From contig CAZBJL010000001.1 of NCBI GenBank assembly GCA_964492195.1, forward strand, positions 79,082-143,081: DNA of 64,000 bases. Reading direction: 5' to 3'. Shown here piece after piece: positions 477 to 53,690 of the stretch. The stretch's first letter is position 1. The number at the start of each line of letters is the position of its first letter. This stretch comes from an uncultured Candidatus Saccharibacteria bacterium. GTDB taxonomy: Bacteria > Patescibacteriota > Minisyncoccia > Phycocordibacterales > DATGWK01. Both the position numbers and the translations under genes were made by a program. Under the pieces are notes generated by a model that was given only the letters and a program-made list of their open reading frames with translations, was not told the origin of the DNA and ran no database searches.

Positions 477-552
477 TGGTGCCGAGAGCCGGATTCGAAC
501 CGGCGACCCCATCCTCTTCAGGGATATGCTCTACCAACTGAGCTATCTCGGC
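477..552 (-). tRNA. tRNA-Phe (anticodon GAA)
   Basis: Manual cloverleaf: acceptor GCCGAGA/TCTCGGC, D arm GCTCAGTTGGTAGAGC, anticodon loop CTGAAGA, T arm GCCGGTTCGAATCCGGC, CCA encoded. Confidence 0.9.
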
Positions 553-564
553 GTGGCGCTCGTA

Positions 565-682
565 GGGTGAATTTTAATTCAGCTGTGCTGAGAGCACCTT
601 CGTGCGGACATATGTTTCGCGTCGCATGCTCCGCTCAACATATGATCCTTCCTCAGTTGCTCCGACCGCTTAAAATTCACCC
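565..682. repeat. 118 bp element bounded by perfect 13 bp terminal inverted repeats (gggtgaattttaa / ttaaaattcaccc)
   Basis: Perfect inverted repeats at 565-577 and 670-682, immediately 5' of the minus-strand tRNA-Phe. An internal CATATG-flanked hairpin is present. Confidence 0.5.
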
Positions 683-716
683 GTACTCACTTTTCGATGT
701 AAATACAAATTCAATG

Positions 717-977
717 CTATGGTTTTGCGAACGGATTTACGAAGTTTTGGATAGAATTCGCACCGTGTTGAAGGTTGCTGTATGCGGCAAAAAGCTGTTC
801 TAGGTAGGGCTGAATGTAGTAGTAGGCGCCAATAGATACACCGATAAGGATAATCCAGTAGATAAGCCTTCCAATTCCAACCAAACGGGCCGTTCTGCGC
901 ATTCCGTGAAGAATCCTGTTATTCTCCTCGGTAAGCGACATTAACCTCTCAAAAAACTTCTTATCTTGCAAATCCAT
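717..977 (-). CDS. hypothetical small membrane protein (86 aa)
   Basis: ORF with a central hydrophobic helix (LIYWIILIGVSIGAYYYI). Confidence 0.4.
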   Translation of the reverse strand: MDLQDKKFFERLMSLTEENNRILHGMRRTARLVGIGRLIYWIILIGVSIGAYYYIQPYLEQLFAAYSNLQHGANSIQNFVNPFAKP

Positions 978-1049
978 GTCGGAAATAGTACCAAAATATG
1001 GGCTTTGACGCCACTTTCTCGGCGGCAGTGCTTATACATCTTACTTCTA

Positions 1050-1121
1050 TGCCACCGATAGGAATTGAACCTATATCTATCCCTTAGGACGGGACTGTTC
1101 TATCCGTTGAACTACGGCGGC
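1050..1121 (-). tRNA. tRNA-Arg (anticodon CCT)
   Basis: Cloverleaf: acceptor GCCGCCG/CGGTGGC, D stem GTTC/GAAC, anticodon stem GTCCC/GGGAT with loop GTCCTAA, T arm ATAGGTTCAATTCCTAT. Confidence 0.8.
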
Positions 1122-1161
1122 TCGGACCGAAGCATATCACGAGCAAAAAACAGGGGGAATG

Positions 1162-1404
1162 TTATGCGGGCAAACCGAGGAGATTAGCGATGATTGGTTT
1201 GTTGAAACCAACAACGAGGTCAGTGTCGCCAATAATGATGACAGGGACACCCATCTGGCCGCTTTTTTCGATCATTTCATTTCGCCTTTCAGTGTCTGCG
1301 GCGACGTTGTGTTCTTCGTAAGGGATATTGTTTGCTGCGAAATACTCTTTGGCTAATTTGCAGTATTTGCACACAGGGGTAGAAAATATTGTGACTTTTT
1401 TCAT
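1162..1404 (-). CDS. glutaredoxin-like protein (NrdH/YruB family)
   Basis: 80 aa protein with N-terminal CKYC redox motif and a thioredoxin-fold pattern (VPVIIIGD). Confidence 0.75.
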   Translation of the reverse strand: MKKVTIFSTPVCKYCKLAKEYFAANNIPYEEHNVAADTERRNEMIEKSGQMGVPVIIIGDTDLVVGFNKPIIANLLGLPA

Positions 1405-1549
1405 ATTTTTTTAAAAAATAAATTAGAAGTGAAGAGATTATAGCATATTTGAAATGTACGGAATTTTTAGAAAGAAACCTTTTATTTTATGACCCACTAG
1501 CGTTGCTTTCAGAACTGTATAAAGATAGAGAGTATATTAAATCAAGCAT

Positions 1550-2134
1550 TTACGCTCTGACAGAAATTGCCTCTTCAAGTAATTGAGGAAACTCAACCGT
1601 TTGCATATCGCTAAAACAAAAATGCCCGTATGAGTGGAAGTCTACAAGTTTTATATCAGGAATGGACCCGAGTATTTTTTCAACACTTACGTGAATTGAA
1701 CTATCGTCATTATCGCTATTGAAGATAGTTACTCCTGCTGTACGTGAGACCAGTTTTTCATCCATTGTAAAGTTGAAGAAATCATTATCTTTTCCTTTGC
1801 TTTTTTCAGGGTCTAGCCACGGAGCAACCAATACAACCTTACCAACAGTTACGTTTTTATTTTCAGATAACCAACGAACTAAAAATCCACCACCACAACT
1901 ATGACCGATAAGTATTGTTTCTGGTGTGATATCAAAACGTTCTAGCTCACGCTTCCATACAGCATAATCAGGCATATATGAGTTTGGTACCTCTATAACT
2001 ACAGCAGGAATATCTCTAATGATGAGTTGTTTCTGTAGCCACGGTAGCCAGTGTGAGTTACTGGCTGAAGGGTAGTCAGGTGAGTAGTACTCTTCTTTAT
2101 CAGATGTGCCGTGAATGATAATTGCATTTTTCAT
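1550..2134 (-). CDS. alpha/beta hydrolase, RBBP9/YdeN-like serine hydrolase
   Basis: GHSCGG nucleophile-elbow motif. Start taken at MKNAIIIHG inside the longer ORF 1550..2167. Confidence 0.65.
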   Translation of the reverse strand: MKNAIIIHGTSDKEEYYSPDYPSASNSHWLPWLQKQLIIRDIPAVVIEVPNSYMPDYAVWKRELERFDITPETILIGHSCGGGFLVRWLSENKNVTVGKVVLVAPWLDPEKSKGKDNDFFNFTMDEKLVSRTAGVTIFNSDNDDSSIHVSVEKILGSIPDIKLVDFHSYGHFCFSDMQTVEFPQLLEEAISVRA

Positions 2135-2211
2135 AACACAAAGTATACCAAAGTTCTGAACCCCCATTGGGGTGCTCTGAAATACGTTGATAAATATAGC
2201 TTCTTATTTTG

Positions 2212-2283
2212 TGACCCTACCGGGAATCGAACCCGGGTTTGCGCCTTGAAAGGGCACTGTCCTAACCGTTAGACGATAGGGCC
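2212..2283 (-). tRNA. tRNA-Glu (anticodon TTC)
   Basis: Cloverleaf: acceptor GGCCCTA/TAGGGTC, anticodon stem GTGCC/GGCGC with loop CTTTCAA, T arm CCGGGTTCGATTCCCGG. Confidence 0.85.
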
Positions 2284-2374
2284 GAAAAACATCGGAACGC
2301 TTGGTACTGTAACATTTTCTTTAAAAAGTGTAAAAAAGGCCCCAATGCGTTACTATTTGCAGGTGTTGAAGACT

Positions 2375-2461
2375 GGAAGTGTGGCAGAGTGGTCGAATGC
2401 ACCGCTTTCGAAAAGCGGCATGCTCGAAAGGGTATCAGAGGTTCAAATCCTCTCACTTCCG
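2375..2461 (+). tRNA. tRNA-Ser (anticodon CGA), long variable arm
   Basis: Acceptor GGAAGTG/CACTTCC, anticodon stem CCGCT/AGCGG with loop TTCGAAA, long extra arm, T arm AGAGGTTCAAATCCTCT. Confidence 0.85.
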
Positions 2462-2516
2462 CAATGACCGATAAGGTATAATTCTTGTATTAGAAGGTGA
2501 TTTAATATTACGCACT

Positions 2517-2936
2517 ATGGACATTAATTTCTGGGCAGTGCTTGTGAGTTCGGTGGTTGTGATGGTTTTAGGTTTTGTGTGGCACGGACCGCTTTTTGGA
2601 AAAAAATTCAACGAAGCGATGGGTATGACGATGCCGACCGATCCTGAAGTGCGAAAAAAGATGATGAGGGGAATGAATAAAATTTATCTCATTCAGTTTC
2701 TTCTTTTTGTTGTGCAAATGTTTGTTTTGGCAAAACACATCAGCTTAGTTCCAAGTATGTCTGCCGTTGCAACCGCGTTCTGCTTGTGGCTTGGATTCGT
2801 GATGCCGACGGTTGCGAGCGCTGCAATTTGGAATGATAGATCAACAAAAGCGCGATGGACGATTTTCTTTGTGAGCGCAGGTTTTAATCTTGTTTCACTT
2901 GTCATTGCGGCGTTGATTCTCGGGATGTGGAACTAG
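2517..2936 (+). CDS. DUF1761-like integral membrane protein
   Basis: 139 aa, four predicted TM helices. N-terminus (WAVLVSSVVVMVLGFVWHGPLFGKKF) matches DUF1761 proteins. Confidence 0.5.
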   Translation: MDINFWAVLVSSVVVMVLGFVWHGPLFGKKFNEAMGMTMPTDPEVRKKMMRGMNKIYLIQFLLFVVQMFVLAKHISLVPSMSAVATAFCLWLGFVMPTVASAAIWNDRSTKARWTIFFVSAGFNLVSLVIAALILGMWN

Positions 2937-3001
2937 GGTAGCTTGAATTAATATTTGAATTTGAGTTAGAATAACGATCCGGAAATTGTTTCCGGATTCC
3001 A

Positions 3002-3073
3002 GGGCGATTAGCTCAGTTGGTAGAGCGCAACATTGACGTTGTTGATGCCAGAGGTTCGAGTCCTCTATCGCCC
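3002..3073 (+). tRNA. tRNA-Val (anticodon GAC)
   Basis: GGGCGAT TA GCTCAGTTGGTAGAGC ... anticodon loop TTGACGT ... AGAGGTTCGAGTCCTCT ATCGCCC A. Confidence 0.9.
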
Positions 3074-3086
3074 ACAGAGTTTTATT

Positions 3087-10323: not shown

Positions 10324-10956
10324 TTATTTACTGAAATCTCCTGGTAAAAAATGAAAACTTGCGGCTGGTAAAAGTCTGAACAACGGACGCCCGACGATGA
10401 GGTCGGCGGGTACAGGTCCCCACGACCTCGAATCGAGGCTGCCGAGGCGATTGTCGCCAAGAACAAAATATTCCTTTTCTCCAAGCGGCTCGCTTTTGAA
10501 ATCCTCGAGCTTTTTATTTCCGTCCGCGATGAATGGTTCGTTGAGTGTAGTAGTTCCACCGTCCTTTGAGAGGACTGTAACGATTCCGTTTTTAATTTCT
10601 ATTGTTTCTCCAGGTAAACCGATGACTCGCTTGATGAAAAATTTAGTTTTATCTTTTGGATATTTGAAAATAATGACAGAATCACGTTTTGGTTCTTCAA
10701 AACGCTGACTTAATTGGTCGACAATTAAATATTGACCGTCTGCAAAGGTTGGATCCATCGATGCGCCTGAAACAATGAAGGGTTGCGCGATGTAGAGGCG
10801 GAACGGAATGACGATAATGAGGGTAATGAACGTAAACTTGATGATTTCTTTCCAGAAACCGCCGCGGGGAGATACAGGAGCAGATTCTTTTACTTCAGTA
10901 TCATGAGAACTTTCATTCATGCTTGCCATTCTAGTACGTTTGAGCGTTTGACACAA
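10324..10956 (-). CDS. lepB: signal peptidase I
   Basis: SGASMDPT (Ser nucleophile box) and GDNRLGSLDSRSWGPV (box E). Confidence 0.85.
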   Translation of the reverse strand: MCQTLKRTRMASMNESSHDTEVKESAPVSPRGGFWKEIIKFTFITLIIVIPFRLYIAQPFIVSGASMDPTFADGQYLIVDQLSQRFEEPKRDSVIIFKYPKDKTKFFIKRVIGLPGETIEIKNGIVTVLSKDGGTTTLNEPFIADGNKKLEDFKSEPLGEKEYFVLGDNRLGSLDSRSWGPVPADLIVGRPLFRLLPAASFHFLPGDFSK

Positions 10957-11745: not shown

Positions 11746-12090
11746 ATGAAGAGTTGGTTCAAAAATCACACGGAGCTTCTTGTGGGGATACTCGTCGGCT
11801 TGCTGTTCGTCAGTCTGGCAATTGTTTCCGGCCCCTTCGCCGTCTTTATGATGGTGATGCGATCCAGCAAGGGTCATCCGGCGACTCCGACGGTGTGCAC
11901 GTTCAGTGCAATCTTGTGGCTCTTCGCTGTCGGTCTCGCGTGTGGTCTTTATCGAGACCCGATCTTCGGCTGGCCATACCTAACCGCTCTGTTGGTTTGG
12001 AGCGTGTCGGTGGTTCTTACGCTCGCTGTCTCATTGTTCGATGCCTATGAGTATTCAGCGAACAAGTTCAACGCCGACTTTGGCAACTGA
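11746..12090 (+). CDS. hypothetical 3-TM membrane protein, GC-rich cassette gene
   Basis: 114 aa ORF, visibly higher GC than its neighbours. Own promoter, AAGGAGG SD and terminator. Confidence 0.5.
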   Translation: MKSWFKNHTELLVGILVGLLFVSLAIVSGPFAVFMMVMRSSKGHPATPTVCTFSAILWLFAVGLACGLYRDPIFGWPYLTALLVWSVSVVLTLAVSLFDAYEYSANKFNADFGN

Positions 12091-18348: not shown

Positions 18349-19650
18349 ATGAAGGGGATGAGTAAATTTCAATTGATCCTCACCGGAATTTTCGGTGCAT
18401 TTATTCTTATTGGCGTATTGGTCTTTGCGTTTGCGGGAGGTTCTGGTTCGAACACAGTGGTAAGTCAGGCAACAGTCTGGGGTACGATGAGCAGCGGCCT
18501 TTTCGATACATTTTTGAAAGAGTCTGGACTCAACCAAGACAAAACCATTGCGATTACCTATGTCGAAAAAAACAAAGATACATTTGACCAAGATTTTGTC
18601 GAAGCACTCGCTGTTGGCAAAGGTCCCGATCTTTTCTTCCTGCCACAAGACAGCATTTTAAAACATCAAGACAAAATTTTTACAATTCCCTTTGCCTCAT
18701 ATTCAGAAGGAACGTTTAAACAAAACTTCATTCAGGAAGGAGAGTTGTATCTCAACAAAGAAGGTATTCTCGGTTTGCCGTTTATGGTTGACCCGATGGT
18801 TATGTATTGGAATCGAGACATCTTTTCGAATGCCGGTTTGAGTCTCACACCGAAATATTGGAGCGAGCTCTATGACCTTTCAACGAGACTTACAGTCAAA
18901 GATACAAGTTTCAATGTAAGCAAAAGTGCAGTGGCGATCGGTGAGCATGCAAACGTTACGAACGCCAATGAAATCGTAAGTCTTTTGGTGATGCAAGCAG
19001 GGAGTCCGATTACACAGCGGAATAAAATTGATGGAAATGTAAATAGTGTTTTCAATCAGCGTTTCAATTTGCCAATTCCGCCAGCACAGTCGGCACTTAA
19101 TTTTTATACTGAATTTTCAAATCCGCTCAAACCATTTTATTCTTGGAATCGATCGATTCCAGAATCAAAAAATTTCTTTCTTGCAGGTGACCTTGCGCTT
19201 TACTTTGGTTTTGCATCAGAACTTTCAGATATTCGCCTCAAGAATCCTAATTTAAATTTTGACATCGCATCGATTCCGCAATCAAAAAATTCAAATCTTA
19301 CAATTACGTTCGGCCGAATGGTCGGTCTTGCTATTCCAAAAAATTCTAAAAACATTGCCGCGGCGTTTAAAGTTGCTGCCTCACTTACGAGCCCAACGAG
19401 CATCACTGCACTTTCAAAAGTAACCCATTTGCCGCCAGTTCGAAGAGATTTACTCGCGATTCGTCCGTCAGAAGCCTATCTTTCAACATTTTACGATGGG
19501 GCGATTCAGTCGCGCGCCTGGCTTTCTCCTGAACCATCAAGTCTCAACCCAATTTTTAAAGAAATGATTGAATCTGTAACGGCAGGCCGAGCAAGCACAG
19601 CCGAAGCGCTTACTCGTGCAAGCCAGCAACTTGAAACATTACTCCGATGA
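18349..19650 (+). CDS. membrane-anchored extracellular solute-binding protein (family 1 SBP)
   Basis: N-terminal TM anchor. Sugar-SBP-like blocks: ALAVGKGPDLFFL, WNRDIFSNAGL, YWSELYD. Confidence 0.7.
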   Translation: MKGMSKFQLILTGIFGAFILIGVLVFAFAGGSGSNTVVSQATVWGTMSSGLFDTFLKESGLNQDKTIAITYVEKNKDTFDQDFVEALAVGKGPDLFFLPQDSILKHQDKIFTIPFASYSEGTFKQNFIQEGELYLNKEGILGLPFMVDPMVMYWNRDIFSNAGLSLTPKYWSELYDLSTRLTVKDTSFNVSKSAVAIGEHANVTNANEIVSLLVMQAGSPITQRNKIDGNVNSVFNQRFNLPIPPAQSALNFYTEFSNPLKPFYSWNRSIPESKNFFLAGDLALYFGFASELSDIRLKNPNLNFDIASIPQSKNSNLTITFGRMVGLAIPKNSKNIAAAFKVAASLTSPTSITALSKVTHLPPVRRDLLAIRPSEAYLSTFYDGAIQSRAWLSPEPSSLNPIFKEMIESVTAGRASTAEALTRASQQLETLLR

Positions 19651-20108
19651 AACGTATAATCCTCACTTTATTTTTACTGTTTGTGTTGATCGCAGTGCCG
19701 GTCGTTGCGTCTGCGCAGGCATTTGTAATTCCATGTACTGGCGCTCCGGCTGCAGATTTTCAGGGTACGCCTGGCCCAACGGATCACAACTGTACGTGGG
19801 TTGATTTTCTCCAACTTATTTCAAATGCACTTACGTTTTTAGTGCTCCTTTCGATTCCACTCGCAACGATCGCTTTTGCCTGGTCGGGCTTTCTTATGCT
19901 TACAGCGGCAGGAAGTGAATCCAAAGTTTCTGACGCGAAAGAAATTTTTACAAAGGTACTCATGGGTTTTATTTTTGTACTCACCGCATGGCTTATTGTG
20001 AAGTTGATCGTGTCGACACTGCTCAATGATTCATACGACGACATATTGCAAAGCGGATTGCCTTCGACACATCAGGAATATGTTATTCGAGGCGAAGAAT
20101 TAGTGTAG
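19647..20108 (+). CDS. VirB2/TrbC-like pilin-like protein, paralog 1
   Basis: Signal peptide (ends VVASAQA), two hydrophobic helices separated by a short charged loop. ATGA start/stop overlap with the SBP gene. Confidence 0.55.
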   Translation: MKRIILTLFLLFVLIAVPVVASAQAFVIPCTGAPAADFQGTPGPTDHNCTWVDFLQLISNALTFLVLLSIPLATIAFAWSGFLMLTAAGSESKVSDAKEIFTKVLMGFIFVLTAWLIVKLIVSTLLNDSYDDILQSGLPSTHQEYVIRGEELV

Positions 20109-20131
20109 TTTAAATTTGATACAATAAAACA

Positions 20132-20536
20132 ATGAAGTTTTTAAAATTTTTTGCGGGTTTGCTAGCCTCATTCGCGTTGCCTCTTGCTGCTTTTGCTGAT
20201 GGTCCCGCTGGTGGGGCAGGTGGTCTGCCAAATCCTCTTGCCGGCGGCGTTGATAGCATCCAGGCACTTCTTGTCCTTGTTCTCAACAACATTGTTCTTC
20301 CAATTGGATCTATCGTTGTGGTCATTATGATAATTTATTCCGGCTTTCTTTTTGTGACTGCGCGCGGAAGCGAGGATAAAATCGATACTGCAAAACATGT
20401 ATTGAAGTACGTGGTCATTGGCACCGCGATTCTTTTTGGTTCAGTCATCATTTCTTCGGTTATTGGCAATACACTCTGCCAAATCGCCCCAAGTCTCCCG
20501 GGTTGTGTTGCGTCAGGAAATCCTCTTGGAAATTAA
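20132..20536 (+). CDS. VirB2/TrbC-like pilin-like protein, paralog 2
   Basis: Signal peptide (LAAFA), two TM helices with loop TARGSEDKIDTAKH. Confidence 0.55.
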   Translation: MKFLKFFAGLLASFALPLAAFADGPAGGAGGLPNPLAGGVDSIQALLVLVLNNIVLPIGSIVVVIMIIYSGFLFVTARGSEDKIDTAKHVLKYVVIGTAILFGSVIISSVIGNTLCQIAPSLPGCVASGNPLGN

Positions 20537-20539
20537 TTC

Positions 20540-20920
20540 ATGAAAAAGCTCTATCCTCTCATCCTCCTTGCTCTTGGTTCGTTTTCTCTGCCGATGCCTT
20601 TGTTTGCAGCTGTGTGCACGTCATTTACGGGTACACCGAGCACGTTTGGAGACGTTATCTGTTTGTTTACTGATCTCTTGCTCACGATAATCCCGATCGT
20701 TGCTGGTTTGGCGCTCGTCTTTTTCTTCTGGGGCTTGGCTAAGTCCATTTTGCACGCTGACAACGAAGATGCTCGCGAAGAAGGGCGGGAAGTAATGAAA
20801 TGGGGAATTGTGGCGCTTTTTGTACTCGTTTCGATTTGGGGAATCGTCCTCTACCTCCATGGTGATTTCTTTGGATACAGTCCTGTCGGTATTCCACAGC
20901 TGCCGACAGGTTCGATATAA
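20540..20920 (+). CDS. VirB2/TrbC-like pilin-like protein, paralog 3
   Basis: Signal peptide (PLFAA). Conserved FFWGLAKSIL-HADNEDAREEGREVMKWGIVALFVLVSIWGIV core. Confidence 0.6.
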   Translation: MKKLYPLILLALGSFSLPMPLFAAVCTSFTGTPSTFGDVICLFTDLLLTIIPIVAGLALVFFFWGLAKSILHADNEDAREEGREVMKWGIVALFVLVSIWGIVLYLHGDFFGYSPVGIPQLPTGSI

Positions 20921-20924
20921 ACAT

Positions 20925-21290
20925 ATGAAACTACAAAAAATTATTTTGAAAATTAAAACTGTAATTCTACTTTCCGTTTTTTCTATTCCCGCATTCGCAT
21001 TTGCTCAACAAGCTGACGGAATAAAGGGACTCATCGTATCTTTTGGGAATATTGTTCGGCTTCTTATCCCTTTGAGTGCTGCATGTGCGCTCCTGTTCTT
21101 TTTCTGGGGTTTGGCAAAATCGATTTTGAAATCTGACAGTGAAGATGGAAGGGAAGAAGGAAAAGAAATAATGAAATGGGGCATTGTTGCGCTTTTCGTA
21201 ATTACTTCTATCTGGGGCATCGTTGGATTTATTCAGGATGACCTTGGTATTCCAGATGTACACACCATTTCAGCGCCGGGTGTGAGGTAG
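20925..21290 (+). CDS. VirB2/TrbC-like pilin-like protein, paralog 4
   Basis: Signal peptide (AFAFAQQ). FFWGLAKSILKSDSEDGREEGKEIMKWGIVALFVITSIWGIV core. Start moved to the ATG at 20925 to avoid overlap with paralog 3. Confidence 0.6.
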   Translation: MKLQKIILKIKTVILLSVFSIPAFAFAQQADGIKGLIVSFGNIVRLLIPLSAACALLFFFWGLAKSILKSDSEDGREEGKEIMKWGIVALFVITSIWGIVGFIQDDLGIPDVHTISAPGVR

Positions 21291-21383
21291 TGTGGTACTA
21301 TGAATTCGACGGAGCTTTAAAATTGTGCTCAATTTATTATTAGTTTCTTTAAAAATATGCCCAGCATGGTTGGGCTCAATCAA

Positions 21384-21728
21384 ATGAAAAAAATTATTAT
21401 CGGAACCTTGCTTTTTGCTCCAATGTTCGCGTTTGCCCAGCAATTAGGCAATATCACCACGCTCATTCGATCAATCGGCAATATCATCCAGATTCTCATT
21501 CCGATCACTGCTGCGCTCGCCCTCCTCTACTTCTTCTGGGGCCTTGCAAAGTTTATTTTGAACTCTGCTGACGAAGAAAAACGTTCAGAAGGCAAGCATA
21601 TTATGATCTGGGGCGTTGTTGCGCTTTTCGTGATCGTGTCTGTTTGGGGTCTCACTGGTTTCATTGGCGATGCACTCGACATCAATACTCCACAGAGCCA
21701 ACCAATTCCTACCGTTAACGGTATCTAA
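21384..21728 (+). CDS. VirB2/TrbC-like pilin-like protein, paralog 5
   Basis: Signal peptide (MFAFAQQ). FFWGLAKFILNSADEEKRSEGKHIMIWGVVALFVIVSVWGL core. Confidence 0.6.
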   Translation: MKKIIIGTLLFAPMFAFAQQLGNITTLIRSIGNIIQILIPITAALALLYFFWGLAKFILNSADEEKRSEGKHIMIWGVVALFVIVSVWGLTGFIGDALDINTPQSQPIPTVNGI

Positions 21729-24437: not shown

Positions 24438-24522
24438 TGGTGCCGAGGAGAGGACTTGAACCTCCATGGGTTACCCCGCTTGCTCCTAAGGCAAGTGCGT
24501 CTGCCAATTTCGCCACCTCGGC
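24438..24522 (-). tRNA. tRNA-Leu (anticodon TAG)
   Basis: Acceptor GCCGAGG/CCTCGGC, anticodon stem CTTGC/GCAAG with loop CTTAGGA, long variable arm, CCA encoded. Confidence 0.85.
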
Positions 24523-24531
24523 GTAATCGCT

Positions 24532-24627
24532 CGCGAGAGTATTTTTGGAATGAGCACATAAAAGTCTGCTGACTTTTTGCTCTGCTCGCGCCAAGCGCTG
24601 CGCAACTCATTTTGAAAATACTCTCGC
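24532..24627. repeat. structured palindromic repeat, family B copy 3 (diverged)
   Basis: Core caCATAAAAGTCTGCTGACTTTTTGCTC + gcgcc-aag-cgc hairpin + tgcgcaactc. Enclosed by IR gagagtatttttggaatgag / ctcattttgaaaatactctc. Lies between tRNA-Leu and tRNA-Lys. Confidence 0.5.
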
Positions 24628-24677
24628 TCGCTCCTACGTTACTTAATTCTATATTATCTTTACTATCACAAACCTTG

Positions 24678-24750
24678 TCCGCCCAGCAGGATTCGAACCT
24701 GCGACCTTATCCTTAAGAGGGATCTGCTCTACCAACTGAGCTATAGGCGG
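24678..24750 (-). tRNA. tRNA-Lys (anticodon CTT)
   Basis: Acceptor CCGCCTA/TGGGCGG, D arm GCTCAGTTGGTAGAGC, anticodon loop CTCTTAA, T arm GCAGGTTCGAATCCTGC. Confidence 0.75.
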
Positions 24751-24763
24751 ATATATCAAAGGG

Positions 24764-24845
24764 TGCCCAGGGCGAGACTCGAACTCGCACTCCTTACGGA
24801 ACTCGATCTTAAGTCGAGCGCGGCTACCAATTACGCCACCCGGGC
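24764..24845 (-). tRNA. tRNA-Leu (anticodon TAA)
   Basis: Acceptor GCCCGGG/CCTGGGC, anticodon stem CTCGA/TCGAG with loop CTTAAGA, long variable arm. Confidence 0.85.
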
Positions 24846-24862
24846 ATTTTACTTTTCCGCAG

Positions 24863-24934
24863 AGGCCACGACAGGAATCGAACCTGCGCATAAGAGTTTT
24901 GCAAACTCTCGACTTACCACTTGTCTACGTGGCC
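24863..24934 (-). tRNA. tRNA-Cys (anticodon GCA)
   Basis: Acceptor GGCCACG/CGTGGCC, anticodon stem AGAGT/ACTCT with loop TTGCAAA, T arm GCAGGTTCGATTCCTGT. Confidence 0.85.
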
Positions 24935-46814: not shown

Positions 46815-47867
46815 ATGAAAGAAGAAAAAGGTCAGACCGCACTGTATCGGAAATATCGTCCGCATACGTTTAAGGATGTAATCGGCCAGGATCACGTCAT
46901 CAAAGTAATTGAAAATTCAATAAAACTTGGAAATATTTCTCATGCATATCTTTTTGCTGGTTCGCGCGGAACGGGCAAAACTTCTGTTGCGAGAATTTTT
47001 GCACAAGAAATTGGCACGACTGGTTCTGATCTCTACGAAATGGACGCCGCTTCGAATCGCGGTATTGATGACATTCGAGAAATCCGAGAAGGCGTCAACA
47101 CACTTCCTTTTGAATCCAAATATAAGGTGTACATTATCGACGAGGTCCACATGCTTACTAAAGAAGCATTTAATGCGCTTTTGAAAACACTTGAAGAACC
47201 GCCTCCGCATGCGATTTTTATTCTCGCGACGACGGAAACAGAAAAACTTCCCGAAACAGTCGTTTCTCGTTGTCAGACATTTACTTTCAAAAAACCAAAT
47301 CAAGCAATTTTGCGCGAGTTTGCAATGACTATTGCAAAAAAAGAAGGTTTTAGTCTCGAAGCATCTGCAGGGGATCTGGTTGCGTTGCTTGGTGATGGTT
47401 CGTTTCGTGACACGCAGGGAATTTTGCAGAAAGTAATTGCTGGTTCAAAAGATAAGAAAATTTCTCGTGAAGAAGTTGAGCTTGTAACGGGTGCACCTCG
47501 AAATTCTCTTGTTAATGAATTTATTGATTCGATCGCGGCAGGGGATTCACAAAAAGGCATTGTGGCACTTCATGGTGCTGCCGAACAAAATATCGATATG
47601 AATATTTTTGCCAAATTAGTTCTTGAAAAAATGAGATTCGTTCTTCTTTTGACACAGGCACCGGATTTGGAAAAAACAATCAAAGAACGGGTGTCAGCAG
47701 AAGATTTCGAATATCTCCATTCGCTCGCAAAAAGTAAAAATAAAAATCTTTCTTTTGGCTCATTGCTTGAAATGCTCAAAGCAAGTCAGCTCATTGGACG
47801 AGCGTTCATTTCAGAATTGCCGCTTGAGTTGGCACTCGTGAAGATCGCCGGGGAACATAAGGCGTAG
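46815..47867 (+). CDS. dnaX: DNA polymerase III subunit gamma/tau (short form)
   Basis: AAA+ P-loop GSRGTGKTS, DEVHML Walker B, SRC motif (VVSRCQ). Confidence 0.88.
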   Translation: MKEEKGQTALYRKYRPHTFKDVIGQDHVIKVIENSIKLGNISHAYLFAGSRGTGKTSVARIFAQEIGTTGSDLYEMDAASNRGIDDIREIREGVNTLPFESKYKVYIIDEVHMLTKEAFNALLKTLEEPPPHAIFILATTETEKLPETVVSRCQTFTFKKPNQAILREFAMTIAKKEGFSLEASAGDLVALLGDGSFRDTQGILQKVIAGSKDKKISREEVELVTGAPRNSLVNEFIDSIAAGDSQKGIVALHGAAEQNIDMNIFAKLVLEKMRFVLLLTQAPDLEKTIKERVSAEDFEYLHSLAKSKNKNLSFGSLLEMLKASQLIGRAFISELPLELALVKIAGEHKA

Positions 47868-47945: not shown

Positions 47946-48016
47946 TGCCGGATCGTCTAAAGGTAGGACAAGAGACTTTGGATCTCTTTATCTTGGTTCG
48001 ATTCCAAGTCCGGCAG
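47946..48016 (+). tRNA. tRNA-Gln (anticodon TTG)
   Basis: U1:A72 acceptor TGCCGGA/TCCGGCA, anticodon stem AGAGA/TCTCT with loop CTTTGGA, T arm CTTGGTTCGATTCCAAG. Confidence 0.8.
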
Positions 48017-48233
48017 CAGTATTTTTCTAACTTGCTTCGCAAAGCTGGATAGAATCATTTATAGAGAGTACTTGCCTAAAACCTACTTATGTGCTATATT
48101 TTTTAAGGATCGATCTTTAACACAGAAAGGATAAAGACATATAAAAATATGTGAGTTGTGAGTTTCATCCATCGCGCTTGTGTGCGGTGGATTCTTGTTC
48201 AGTGTCAGTTGTATCGCATTAGGAGTGATAGAG

Positions 48234-48938
48234 ATGAAATCATCGTTCGTTCGTATTGTGGCTACGTGCTTGTCCATTGTCCTTACGTTGCTCGACCTGA
48301 GTTCAGCCAAGGCTGACACGATCAGTACCTGGAACGTCGGCTCCGGCCAACCGCAGGACAACTTCTTGCTCACGCAGGTCTCGGCATTTCCCGGTGGCAT
48401 GCTCGAGCTCGGTCAGCGGGCGATCTTCCGCCAGTCGGCAACACCTGTTGCACTGACGGGTGACACGTACCTCGTGTACTCTGGTTTCCAGACTGCAGGC
48501 GAGTACGGCGCGCCCACAACTGTCACGAATCGCAATCGTTGGAATTTCGATTACCACATCTCCTACGGAGGTGGAGTCCAGAACTTGGACAGTCTCACCA
48601 TGACGATCATGAGCCCTTCCGGCAACACCGTCATGGCGCCATTTTTCGACATGAAGGTTGCCAACAACGACAACGTCACCGGCAGTACACCGTTCCCCGG
48701 CGGCGATTCCCAGAACCCCGTGTTCTTCATTCAAGATTCGCAAAATCCGGTTTTCGCGCCGTGGTTCGCGCCAAGTTTCGACATGAACGTCGAAGGCATC
48801 TACACCTTCACGCTCACAGCTGTTGAAGCCAACACCACCATCACGCAGGTCATGCACCTGAACGTCGTTCCGGCTCCGGGCTCGTTCGCTCTTCTCGGCC
48901 TCGGTGGCCTTGCAGCTGCACGTCGTCGTCGTCGCTAA
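48234..48938 (+). CDS. secreted protein with C-terminal PEP-CTERM sorting motif, GC-rich
   Basis: Signal peptide MKSSFVRIVATCLSIVLTLLDLSSAKA. C-terminus VPAPGSFALLGLGGLAAARRRRR (VPxP - hydrophobic helix - Arg cluster). AGGAG SD. Clearly GC-richer than the flanks. Terminator at 48965-48993. Confidence 0.6.
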   Translation: MKSSFVRIVATCLSIVLTLLDLSSAKADTISTWNVGSGQPQDNFLLTQVSAFPGGMLELGQRAIFRQSATPVALTGDTYLVYSGFQTAGEYGAPTTVTNRNRWNFDYHISYGGGVQNLDSLTMTIMSPSGNTVMAPFFDMKVANNDNVTGSTPFPGGDSQNPVFFIQDSQNPVFAPWFAPSFDMNVEGIYTFTLTAVEANTTITQVMHLNVVPAPGSFALLGLGGLAAARRRRR

Positions 48939-48964
48939 TCCTTTCTTCGTTTTTGTTCCCACAA

Positions 48965-48993
48965 GGGCACCTCACAGGTGCCCTTTTTCTTTT
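48965..48993 (+). terminator. rho-independent terminator
   Basis: gggcacc-tcaca-ggtgccc plus ttttt. Confidence 0.6.
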
Positions 48994-49048
48994 ATAAGGA
49001 TATTCTTACGCTGGCTACAGACATATTTTTTGATGTTAAAATAATTCA

Positions 49049-50023
49049 ATGAACAAAAAGATTTTTATTACGCGGAAAATTTCAGATGCAGGGATCGAAA
49101 TGCTTTCAAAGAAAGGGTACCAGGTTGATGTATATCCAAAGGATCGAATTCCAACTCAAAAGGAAATCATCACCATTCTTAAAAAAGGTTCATATGATGC
49201 TGTACTGTGCCTTTTAACAGACAAAATTGACGCTCAAGTATTCGACGCGGCGCCAACAGTAAAAATGTATGCCAATTACGCAATTGGTTTTGATAATATT
49301 GACGTTGTCGAAGCTAAAAAGCGTGGAATTTGTGTCACAAACGCTCCTGGTGACCTCACAACAGAAGCCGTCGCCGAACACGCCATGGCTCTCATGCTCG
49401 CTCTTTCGGCGCGTATTGTTGAAGCAGATGCATTTGTCCGCAAAGGAAAATACAAAGGTTGGATGCCAATGGGCTTTATCGGTGAGGATCTTGCAGGCAA
49501 AACGCTTGGCCTTATCGGGGCGGGGAGGATTGGTGAGCGAACTGCGCATTATTCAAAAGGGTTTGGTATGAAAATTTTATATACTGATTTAAACCAAAAT
49601 ACCCAGCTTGAGCAGGAACACGGTGCGATGTATCGCAACACTGTTGAAGAAATTTTGGCGGAAGCTGATGTGGTCAGTCTCCACGTGCCGCTCCTTACTT
49701 CAACACGACACCTTATGAATGAACGTCGACTCCGACTTATGAAGCCGACAGCATTTCTCATTAATACCTCTCGCGGACCTATTGTCGATGAAAAAGCTCT
49801 TGAAAAAGTTTTGAAGCAAAAGGGTATCGCGGGGGCGGCCTTGGATGTGTATGAATTCGAACCAAAGATTTCTCCAGGTCTCCGAAAACTCCAGAACGTT
49901 GTGCTGACGCCTCATATTGCTTCGGCAAGTCGTCAGGCACGAAATCAGATGGCAGAAATTGCCGCACAGAACATTGTCGACTTTTTGGAAGGCAACAAAC
50001 CGAAACACGTTGTTAATGCGTAG
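49049..50023 (+). CDS. D-isomer-specific 2-hydroxyacid dehydrogenase (glyoxylate/hydroxypyruvate reductase-like)
   Basis: NAD-binding GLIGAGRIGERTA, catalytic R/E/H layout (NTSRG...TPHIAS). Confidence 0.8.
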   Translation: MNKKIFITRKISDAGIEMLSKKGYQVDVYPKDRIPTQKEIITILKKGSYDAVLCLLTDKIDAQVFDAAPTVKMYANYAIGFDNIDVVEAKKRGICVTNAPGDLTTEAVAEHAMALMLALSARIVEADAFVRKGKYKGWMPMGFIGEDLAGKTLGLIGAGRIGERTAHYSKGFGMKILYTDLNQNTQLEQEHGAMYRNTVEEILAEADVVSLHVPLLTSTRHLMNERRLRLMKPTAFLINTSRGPIVDEKALEKVLKQKGIAGAALDVYEFEPKISPGLRKLQNVVLTPHIASASRQARNQMAEIAAQNIVDFLEGNKPKHVVNA

Positions 50024-50103
50024 TTTGGCTGGTGGGGAGTCCCCATACCACTCCTCTGGGGCATGATATGATAAGTGGGCATTAATAATAGATAATAATA
50101 AAT

Positions 50104-50358
50104 ATGGCAAAAACCAATTCCGCGTTCATGAAACCTATGACTATCAGTGCTGATCTCGCCGAAGTCGTCGGTAAGGGTCCTATGCCTCGGTCAGAAGTTG
50201 TGAAGAAGCTCTGGGTCTACATCAAGAAAAATAATCTTCAGGATCCTAAGAACAAGCGCAACATTGAAGCTGATGCACCTCTCAAGAAAGTCTTTGGAGG
50301 TAAGGGTACCGTCAACATGTTTGAAATGACAAAACTCGTTTCAAAGCATCTTTCATAG
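50104..50358 (+). CDS. SWIB/MDM2 domain protein
   Basis: 84 aa. ISADLAEVVGKGPMPRSEVVKKLWVYIKKNNLQDP matches the SWIB fold consensus. Confidence 0.65.
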   Translation: MAKTNSAFMKPMTISADLAEVVGKGPMPRSEVVKKLWVYIKKNNLQDPKNKRNIEADAPLKKVFGGKGTVNMFEMTKLVSKHLS

Positions 50359-52846: not shown

Positions 52847-52949
52847 AAGTTGTCTTGTTTCTTTAGGTTTGTTACTCTTTACGTGGAATTGAAAGCTGTA
52901 AGCGCGGCTTATAAGAGCGCTTGGTGGAACTTTGAAAAGGGAGAAACGT

Positions 52950-53690
52950 ATGATCAAGCCAACACGGCGTGACCTGTTTAACGGATTGGCAGAGAAGTGG
53001 AAACGCCACTATTTCAGTGCTGGCGCACGGTGGAAGTGGAATCCAGAGGGAGACGAAACACTTCCGCACGCAGCTCTCACTACAGCAGTGCATGCGGATC
53101 AATTTCTCAACACTGACTGGTTGAATCGAGATCCGCTTTTGGTTGAGGAAGCTGCGACGGACATGATCACTGTGTTGGAAGCCATCGGTTTCGATTTCGA
53201 CCAACCGGACTATGTGGCGGGGCCGGTCTACGGTTCGACGTGTTTGGCGTTTTGTTTGGCTTCTCTCATCTCGCGTCATCGCGATCGTCATTGTTACTCT
53301 GTGCCAATCCTGAAAACGGGGTGTGGGGCAGCCATGAAGATGTCCCTGCGAGGCTGCTTGGTGGAAGAGGGTGACGAAGTGCTGATCGTTGATGACGTCC
53401 TGGCAACAGGAGGAAGTCTGCACCTGGCACGTGAAGCCGTGCTCGCTGAAGGGGCTCTCGTCATTCCGACCTTTTTGGTGATGGCGAACAGGATGGACGT
53501 CGAAGAAATTCCTGGTGGGAATGTTCTTGCTCTGATGAAGGACCTGATGCCTACGTATGCAATTTCGAAGTGTCCGATCTGTGAGAAGACTCAAGACCAA
53601 TCAAAGGCGATTTACCCTAAGGAGGGTAAGAACTGGCGAACTCTCATGGCTCCGAAGTCGTCCCGAACTCAAGCAACTGCGAAGGTTTAA
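52950..53690 (+). CDS. type I phosphoribosyltransferase-family protein (PRPP-binding), GC-rich
   Basis: VLIVDDVLATGGSL PRPP-binding loop. C-terminal CPICEK. A mirror ORF lies on the opposite strand. Confidence 0.6.
   Translation: MIKPTRRDLFNGLAEKWKRHYFSAGARWKWNPEGDETLPHAALTTAVHADQFLNTDWLNRDPLLVEEAATDMITVLEAIGFDFDQPDYVAGPVYGSTCLAFCLASLISRHRDRHCYSVPILKTGCGAAMKMSLRGCLVEEGDEVLIVDDVLATGGSLHLAREAVLAEGALVIPTFLVMANRMDVEEIPGGNVLALMKDLMPTYAISKCPICEKTQDQSKAIYPKEGKNWRTLMAPKSSRTQATAKV

Follow-up and report, generated by a model that had tools for sequence, protein, structure and literature searches.

The window analysed here, a 64,000-nt stretch of contig CAZBJL010000001.1 (assembly GCA_964492195.1, labelled as an uncultured Candidatus Saccharibacteria bacterium), carries on its forward strand a gene (coding sequence, CDS, 48234-48938) for a 234-aa protein that ends in a tail of the PEP-CTERM type, PEP-CTERM proteins being putative substrates of the exosortase EpsH/XrtA (Haft et al. 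2006, PMC1569441). The gene is genuine and expressed-looking, under selection, a member of the PEP-CTERM class and of foreign origin, and it resides in a Paceibacterium, i.e., in a member of the candidate phyla radiation (CPR). We consider it probable that a PEP-CTERM gene was transferred from G + C-rich diderm bacteria into the Paceibacteria and has been kept there under selection, its tail most likely acting as a permanent anchor.

With respect to the assignment to the PEP-CTERM class, the tail is a three-part module at the extreme C-terminus, VPAP-GSFALLGLGGLAAA-RRRRR, which is directly followed by the stop codon; the tail reads VPAPGSFALLGLGGLAAARRRRR, and the protein ends in ...NVVPAPGSFALLGLGGLAAARRRRR. 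The initial annotation had described this C-terminus as having the PEP-CTERM layout and had asked for a comparison with TIGR02595, which indeed scores the tail at 19.6 bits against a curated cut-off of 16, in agreement with PF07589 (21.8 bits, cut-off 20.7). All other above-noise NCBIfam matches of the protein are PEP-CTERM protein families, and when its homologs are included the matches still belong nearly all to such families, with single members weakly touching MYXO-CTERM, LPXTG and GVDTG. Other sorting models stay below their cut-offs for the query, namely VPLPA-CTERM (15.5 vs 25.35), MYXO-CTERM (13.7 vs 20), GC_trans_RRR (13.5 vs 15.85) and VPDSG-CTERM (9.4 vs 22), and the LPXTG model gave no match to the 234-aa protein in the NCBIfam scan.

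Where the Pro-Glu-Pro motif has its nearly invariant Glu, the query has Ala, the motif being P-A-P. All copies of the gene in hosts of low G + C content (see below) have P-A/T-P, and their sister clade has PEP; PAP is found in Planctomycetota relatives, too, and in 8 of the 71 recognised tails of the wider family defined by the body of the protein. A CPR-specific decay of the PEP motif from Glu to Ala was rejected, as the Planctomycetota relatives, including P0025, have nearly the same VPAPG...RRRR tail. The C-terminus of P0025, NVVPAPGAMALLGLGGLAAARRRRA, is identical to the query tail at 22 of 25 positions, and its body gives no BLASTP alignment with that of the query; the PEP-CTERM-type tail thus behaves like a module. 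No CPR copy departs from the two prolines of the P-x-P motif (P213 and P215) or from the Arg cluster, even though synonymous sites are saturated, and the hydrophobic span, about 14-15 residues long in the query, is short and Gly-rich in all of these copies.

The gene also stands out by its composition. Its G + C content of 0.569 compares with a mean of 0.445 (standard deviation 0.039) for the open reading frames (ORFs) of the window, and its G + C content at third codon positions (GC3) is 0.694 as against 0.408 ± 0.053 in the 50 other genes, which makes it the strongest G + C outlier of the window (z = +5.3). The highest 1-kb and 400-nt G + C windows of the whole 64 kb are those at the gene, so that the initial remark that the gene is much richer in G + C than its surroundings (56.9% vs about 44%) holds. 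This anomaly is limited to the CDS, leader and downstream spacer being host-like, and a structured RNA was rejected as the cause of the peak, since the only Rfam matches in the window are tRNAs.

The family to which the protein belongs is rare. A word-indexed search of a collection of 5.8 billion proteins returned 27 proteins at E ≤ 1e-3, among them about 12 copies from low-G + C CPR genomes which form one clade and occur in at least six different genomic contexts. The seven sequenced copies from low-G + C hosts have a G + C content of 52-61% and a GC3 of 0.60-0.77 in hosts of 40-44%; the relatives at loci L018, L011 and L019 lie in contigs of 68-71% G + C and have the same composition as their hosts. 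In a neighbour-joining tree the low-G + C-host copies form one star-like clade, sister to a clade with VPEP motifs and placed inside G + C-rich outgroups. The contig of one member of this VPEP clade also carries secretin and DUF1559-type genes, a neighbourhood typical of Planctomycetota or Verrucomicrobiota, and the contexts of the donor family look like Planctomycetota. Since the CPR clade is nested within relatives from genomes of 68-71% G + C, the transfer ran from diderm bacteria into the CPR. Horizontal acquisition, one of the explanations considered initially, is thus supported by this nesting among G + C-rich PEP-CTERM proteins and by every measured low-G + C-host copy being G + C-rich.

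As to the fate of the gene after transfer, four-fold degenerate sites are identical between CPR copies at 0.24-0.44 as compared to an expectation of 0.27-0.32 (0.59 in one pair). The ratio of non-synonymous to synonymous substitution rates (dN/dS) against six CPR homologs is about 0.1-0.25, and therefore the protein is under purifying selection in its CPR hosts. The ortholog P0007, 63% identical to the query, occupies the same locus in a related genome, where it is likewise flanked by dnaX and tRNA-Gln on one side and by the dehydrogenase, SWIB and ABC genes on the other; GyrA is 94% identical between the two genomes and the neighbouring genes are 65-99% identical. For this pair the four-fold identity is 0.39 (expected 0.29), and for the neighbouring genes it is 0.32-0.47 (expected 0.26-0.32). 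Because its synonymous divergence equals that of its neighbours, an ancestor shared by the two syntenic genomes probably carried the gene at this locus already.

A rough amelioration estimate with a single rate, in which a residual four-fold signal of about 0.14 would mean that about 0.37 of the starting excess is kept per lineage, predicts that a donor GC3 of 0.89 relaxing toward 0.38 should have reached about 0.57, the observed values being 0.60-0.69. The G + C level therefore fits incomplete amelioration without invoking selection. In fact, selection is not required for the G + C-richness to persist, as the syntenic neighbours are equally saturated and one-rate amelioration gives the observed GC3.

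It is very unlikely, on these grounds, that the gene is native to the CPR and owes its G + C-richness to selection acting on the codon usage or the mRNA of a surface protein with high expression. Such an origin would be in line with the high GC3 (0.60-0.77) that all CPR copies retain even though their synonymous sites are nearly randomised, and with the strong Shine-Dalgarno (SD) sequence and terminator of the gene. However, the simple amelioration estimate already accounts for the G + C level, the CPR clade is nested among relatives for which this composition is native, and the codon excess includes NCG codons (ACG, TCG, CCG, GCG) together with CTC/CTG, which is typical of G + C-rich genomes and not of translational selection. 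In addition, the family is rare and patchy in close CPR relatives, with about 12 copies as compared to dozens of GyrA clusters at ≥80% identity.

The initial annotation had also considered assembly chimerism, and the abrupt G + C step, which extends over only about 0.7 kb beside a tRNA gene, is what a G + C-rich fragment wrongly joined into a CPR contig during assembly or binning would look like. This explanation is refuted, because a contig built by a different assembler (Logan, from SRR12487045) is 100% identical to window positions 47989-50345 across both junctions, covering part of the tRNA, the leader, the PEP-CTERM gene and the next two genes. Moreover, the genome carrying the ortholog P0007 at the same locus was assembled independently in four samples (two from JGI and two from ENA), other family members are embedded in at least five further low-G + C CPR contexts, with contigs as long as 226 kb, and the low-G + C leader has a host-type SD sequence.

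With regard to the host itself, the closest organism-named relatives of its GyrA are all Patescibacteria, Paceibacterota, Parcubacteria or Taylorbacteria, which places it in the Patescibacteria (Paceibacteria) and agrees with the initial description of the genome as CPR-like. Two species representatives in GTDB encode a family member, and they are labelled Ca. Zambryskiibacteriota and 'uncultured Ca. Saccharibacteria'. Patescibacteria are regarded as having no outer membrane, the envelope type being taken here from the literature and general knowledge and not from this sequence.

The CDS begins with ATG at 48234 and ends with TAA at 48936-48938, and its product is identical to the database protein P0001. 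An upstream GTG at 48180 would add 18 codons and has no SD sequence, and the identical database entry begins at ATG 48234 as well. The gene has its own SD sequence and terminator, as first noted (Table 1), and GGAG is found 6-9 nt ahead of the ATG in all seven of seven CPR copies of the gene. The end originally given, 48993, is correct for the region including the terminator, whereas the CDS itself stops at 48938. With 216 nt between tRNA-Gln and the ATG, the gene forms a single-gene unit behind a large intergenic region, and leader with SD sequence, CDS and terminator together are a genuine single-gene cassette. The promoter-like site in the leader is not significant on its own, 2 such sites having been found where 1.2 are expected.

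The terminator hairpins of family members resemble each other across contexts: that of the window and that at locus L002 agree at 21 of 22 nt, and compensatory stem changes are seen in two more copies, which suggests that CDS and terminator move as one unit. Similar hairpins lie 3' of the family members at L002, L008 and L010. As vehicles of transfer, a tRNA-linked integrative element was rejected, as there is no integrase and most other copies do not lie beside a tRNA, and so was carriage by phage, no relative having been found in the viral contig collection. Around the gene no flanking direct repeats above chance were detected, a 14-nt pair at 48129/49013 matching at 12/14 positions where, by our own estimate, about 3 such pairs are expected. 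A metagenome scan for further loci of the family yielded only duplicates of known ones.

In the syntenic relative, a 170-aa protein without Pfam match is encoded directly upstream of the PEP-CTERM gene (L008 9464-9976), and a copy of it with 68% identity occurs in an unrelated context, at a distance of 1 kb upstream from the family member there (L017 8489-9004). It has a host-like G + C content and is absent from the window. At L006-L009 it is preceded by a 149-aa membrane protein and a 99-aa sigma-70 region-4 fragment.

The N-terminus, MKSSFVRIVATCLSIVLTLLDLSSAKA/DT (the slash marking the predicted cleavage site), consists of a basic n-region, a hydrophobic core and a c-region with an A-x-A site (AKA/D). 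This upholds, by inspection, the signal peptide proposed at the outset, and an equivalent N-terminus is present in 20 of 20 homologs. AlphaFold2, run with a 20-sequence alignment, models the exported body with a beta-sandwich core, for which predicted local distance difference test (pLDDT) values are 84-95 at residues 41-130 and 191-210 (mean pLDDT 74, predicted template modelling score, pTM, 0.71), places helices at residues 7-19 and at the C-terminus, and puts the DSQNP motifs inside a low-confidence loop. The small internal repeat DSQNPVFFIQ/DSQNPVFAPWF, to which attention had been drawn initially, is located at residues 158-178, and its second copy is invariant across the family (S169, Q170, N171, P172, F174, P176, W177, F178).

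A Foldseek comparison of the body model with the PDB returned nothing significant, the best match being AA10 lytic polysaccharide monooxygenase (LPMO)/CBP21 (E 0.01, template modelling score, TM, 0.24-0.35). An LPMO/CBP21-like function was rejected, as these matches lack significance and the mature protein begins with Asp in place of the required His. A profile of the body alone collected 203 cluster representatives among 1.84 billion; of the 149 listed, about half have PxP-type tails by a strict pattern, and others are longer multidomain proteins. As far as sequence can tell, the body is an uncharacterised, putatively extracellular domain which is often joined to a PEP-CTERM tail.

Table 1. 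Positions of the parts of the PEP-CTERM gene, its flanking signals and selected other genes in the window
Feature	Position	Strand	Basis or remark
dnaX	46815-47867		neighbour on the left side
tRNA-Gln(ttg)	47946-48017	+	ARAGORN; Rfam tRNA 60.4 bits; left neighbour, outside the cassette
Promoter-like site TTGCCT-17-TATATT, extended TG	48072-48100	+	consensus match only
11-bp hairpin in presumed 5' leader	48167-48192	+	between promoter-like site and SD; followed by TCTTGTT
SD sequence AGGAG	48221-48225	+	8 nt ahead of the ATG; from sequence
Predicted Sec signal peptide	48234-48314	+	residues 1-27, cleavage after A-K-A; sequence features
Exported body	48315-48866	+	residues 28-211, beta-sandwich core, low-confidence loop 141-180
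Duplicated DSQNPxF motif	48705-48767	+	residues 158-178, DSQNPVFFIQ/DSQNPVFAPWF
PEP-CTERM-type tail	48867-48935	+	residues 212-234: VPAP, G-rich hydrophobic SFALLGLGGLAAA, RRRRR
Intrinsic terminator	48963-48993	+	stem-loop 48963-48985, 10-bp stem with 6 GC pairs, then T-run
2-Hydroxyacid dehydrogenase	49049-50023		neighbour on the right side
Signal peptidase I	10324-10956		in the window
Type IV secretion system (T4SS) pilin genes (PF18895), four in tandem	19647-20108, 20132-20536, 20808-21290, 21357-21728	+

According to the scenario that we favour, the family would be native to G + C-rich diderms, and one branch of it would have been transferred into the Paceibacteria, would have spread or been re-inserted among related CPR genomes and would then have come under purifying selection, the G + C content of the gene having only partly drifted toward that of the host. 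The protein would be exported through Sec by means of its signal peptide, which signal peptidase I would remove, and the VPAP/hydrophobic/RRRRR tail would hold it in the cytoplasmic membrane, the Arg cluster lying on the inner side and the body on the outer side. The former sorting signal would in this way have become a permanent C-terminal anchor and would no longer be a cleaved signal.

The role as an anchor is the most likely one because neither an exosortase nor other PEP-CTERM proteins were seen in the host DNA searched. Scans of the membrane and unassigned ORFs of the window against NCBIfam and Pfam, which took in every candidate with at least three predicted membrane spans except ORF 20537-20920, revealed no exosortase, in keeping with the initial annotation, and no sortase, rhomboid or CPBP protease. 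At the related CPR loci, which represent seven distinct contexts, the precomputed Pfam annotation lists no PF09721. Neither these loci nor the window yielded a second PEP-CTERM protein, a hidden Markov model (HMM) specific for the tail of this family giving exactly one match in the 64 kb and one per related locus. Two candidates for a processing enzyme near other copies, a DUF817 protein at L010 and a PrsW-type protease at L017, were rejected because neither recurs at the other loci. Literature searches yielded no paper that substantively links PEP-CTERM or exosortases with Patescibacteria, Parcubacteria or CPR. The survey of Haft et al. 2006 (PMC1569441) gives a median of 8 PEP-CTERM proteins per positive genome and reads cases of 1-2 copies without EpsH as degenerate systems; the DNA searched here holds a single such protein and no encoded exosortase.

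Several observations weigh against this scenario. The DNA searched amounts to 64 kb from a contig at least 173 kb long, or perhaps 10% of the genome, so that an exosortase might be encoded elsewhere. A plain anchor is not obviously in need of prolines, and yet P213 and P215 are invariant together with the Arg cluster; a span this short and Gly-rich is what transient sorting signals typically have, and a permanent anchor would be expected to be longer. The signal peptide was assigned only by visual inspection. Finally, the gene tree departs from the genome tree, the query being 63% identical to the copy of the closer genome (GyrA 94%) and 68% identical to that of a more distant one (GyrA 85%), a conflict which might be due either to one entry followed by spread, to several entries, or to uneven rates.

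A rather unlikely though possible alternative, akin to the unrecognised sortase-like system considered initially, is that the protein is a true sorting substrate in the CPR. Some other part of the genome would then encode a divergent exosortase/archaeosortase, or an intramembrane protease of another kind, that recognises the VPAP motif. By analogy with ArtA and PGF-CTERM, it is conceivable, if doubtful, that the tail would be cleaved and the protein passed on to a lipid or to a cell-wall/S-layer acceptor. That the tail scores above the curated PEP-CTERM cut-offs, that P-x-P, short Gly-rich span and RRRR cluster are kept in all CPR copies despite saturated synonymous divergence, and that the search reached less than 10% of the genome would all be in line with such sorting. 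However, there is one such protein per locus as compared to the median of 8 substrates per genome in exosortase systems, there is no match to the exosortase family in the window or at the related loci, the literature searches gave no substantive exosortase link to Patescibacteria or Parcubacteria, and degenerate cases in which orphan PEP-CTERM proteins occur without EpsH are already on record. Somewhat speculatively, and with little probability in our view, the Paceibacteria clade might run PEP-CTERM-type sorting with an unrecognised enzyme or might attach, via the captured protein, to the exopolysaccharide (EPS) matrix of a Planctomycetota-like host; if it did so attach, the donor lineage of the gene would point to the host of the episymbiont.

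Elsewhere in the window, a 252-aa ORF at 52932-53690 (+) with a phosphoribosyltransferase domain (PF00156, 27.8 bits) forms a second G + C peak (0.52-0.545) and has no counterpart in the syntenic interval of the related genome (L008 14665-14810); it may represent another insertion of foreign origin. Another small G + C-rich single-gene unit is a 114-aa membrane ORF at 11746-12090 (+) with a G + C content of 0.53, a GC3 of 0.67, its own AAGGAGG SD sequence and a hairpin terminator, for which no Pfam or NCBIfam match was found. The stretch 19647-21728 (+) with the T4SS pilin genes contains a further small membrane ORF at 20537-20920, and pilin genes of this kind are described as homologous to monoderm conjugation machinery. 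There are two tRNA clusters, one at 24438-24934 (-) with Leu, Lys, Leu and Cys in 500 nt, and one at 477-3075 with five tRNAs inside the first 3 kb; the tRNA-Gln next to the PEP-CTERM gene has its equivalent in the syntenic relative at L008 8047-8120.

Horizontal transfer has thus brought into CPR genomes a sorting-signal class that was defined in bacteria with an outer membrane, and selection has retained it there. This offers a checkable case for asking whether an orphan PEP-CTERM tail serves as a membrane anchor once the exosortase is missing, and whether genes acquired from G + C-rich diderms can give a clue to the hosts on which CPR episymbionts live. It also calls for caution in annotation, as the label 'PEP-CTERM sorting domain' on a CPR protein does not mean that an exosortase system is present.

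Compared with the PEP-CTERM proteins surveyed by Haft et al. 2006 (PMC1569441), the query is alike in its signal peptide, in a body of little recognisable homology, in the 23-aa module of P-x-P, hydrophobic span and Arg cluster, and in forming a single-gene unit with a long intergenic region upstream. It differs by Ala in place of the nearly invariant Glu and by being the sole such gene, with no exosortase, in the DNA searched. In that survey, PEP-CTERM was confined to bacteria that have an outer membrane and also EPS genes, whereas the host here is a Patescibacterium by its GyrA. The initial statement that PEP-CTERM/exosortase systems are associated with diderms agrees with the defining survey and is too narrow for exosortase/archaeosortase-type enzymes at large, since ArtA processes PGF-CTERM in archaea, i.e., in cells without an outer membrane.

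The query also resembles P0021 (GCA_039033175.1, JBCCDD010000020.1) and P0022-P0027 of Planctomycetota, which equal the query in size, share about 30% identity with it over 85% of the length and have almost its tail (VVPAPGxxALLGLGGLxAxRRRR). Unlike the query, P0021 and its relatives have the composition of their own genome of 70% G + C and do not have the second DSQNP copy. In this Planctomycetota metagenome-assembled genome, two more single genes whose products end in VPAPG/IPSPAG...RRRR tails flank the gene of P0021, a distant homolog of the query. The three adjacent single genes (L019 8843-11695) code for different exported proteins, each with a VPAPG/IPSPAG-hydrophobic-RRRR tail, and have the look of a local cluster of PEP-CTERM-variant substrates. 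A partial likeness exists to EDSAP-1 (NF041538), floc_PepA and XDP1, where the similarity is between query residues 122-233 and the C-terminal third of the model; an EDSAP-1-type model is matched by 15 of the 20 family members, but the query is not a member of EDSAP-1, as it scores 31.4 bits against a cut-off of 100 and matches by its C-terminal part only.

Among systems without a detectable exosortase, Chlorobium tepidum has one or two orphan PEP-CTERM genes (Haft et al. 2006), as does the DNA searched here; however, C. tepidum is a diderm and its orphans are read as degenerate, whereas the query gene is under purifying selection across the CPR clade. The PGF-CTERM/archaeosortase A system of archaea resembles the query, by analogy only, in having a three-part C-terminal signal in single-membrane cells, while its signature motif is a different one and no archaeosortase was found in the DNA searched here. 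On present evidence, the gene represents a known PEP-CTERM class in an unusual host and not a new type of system.

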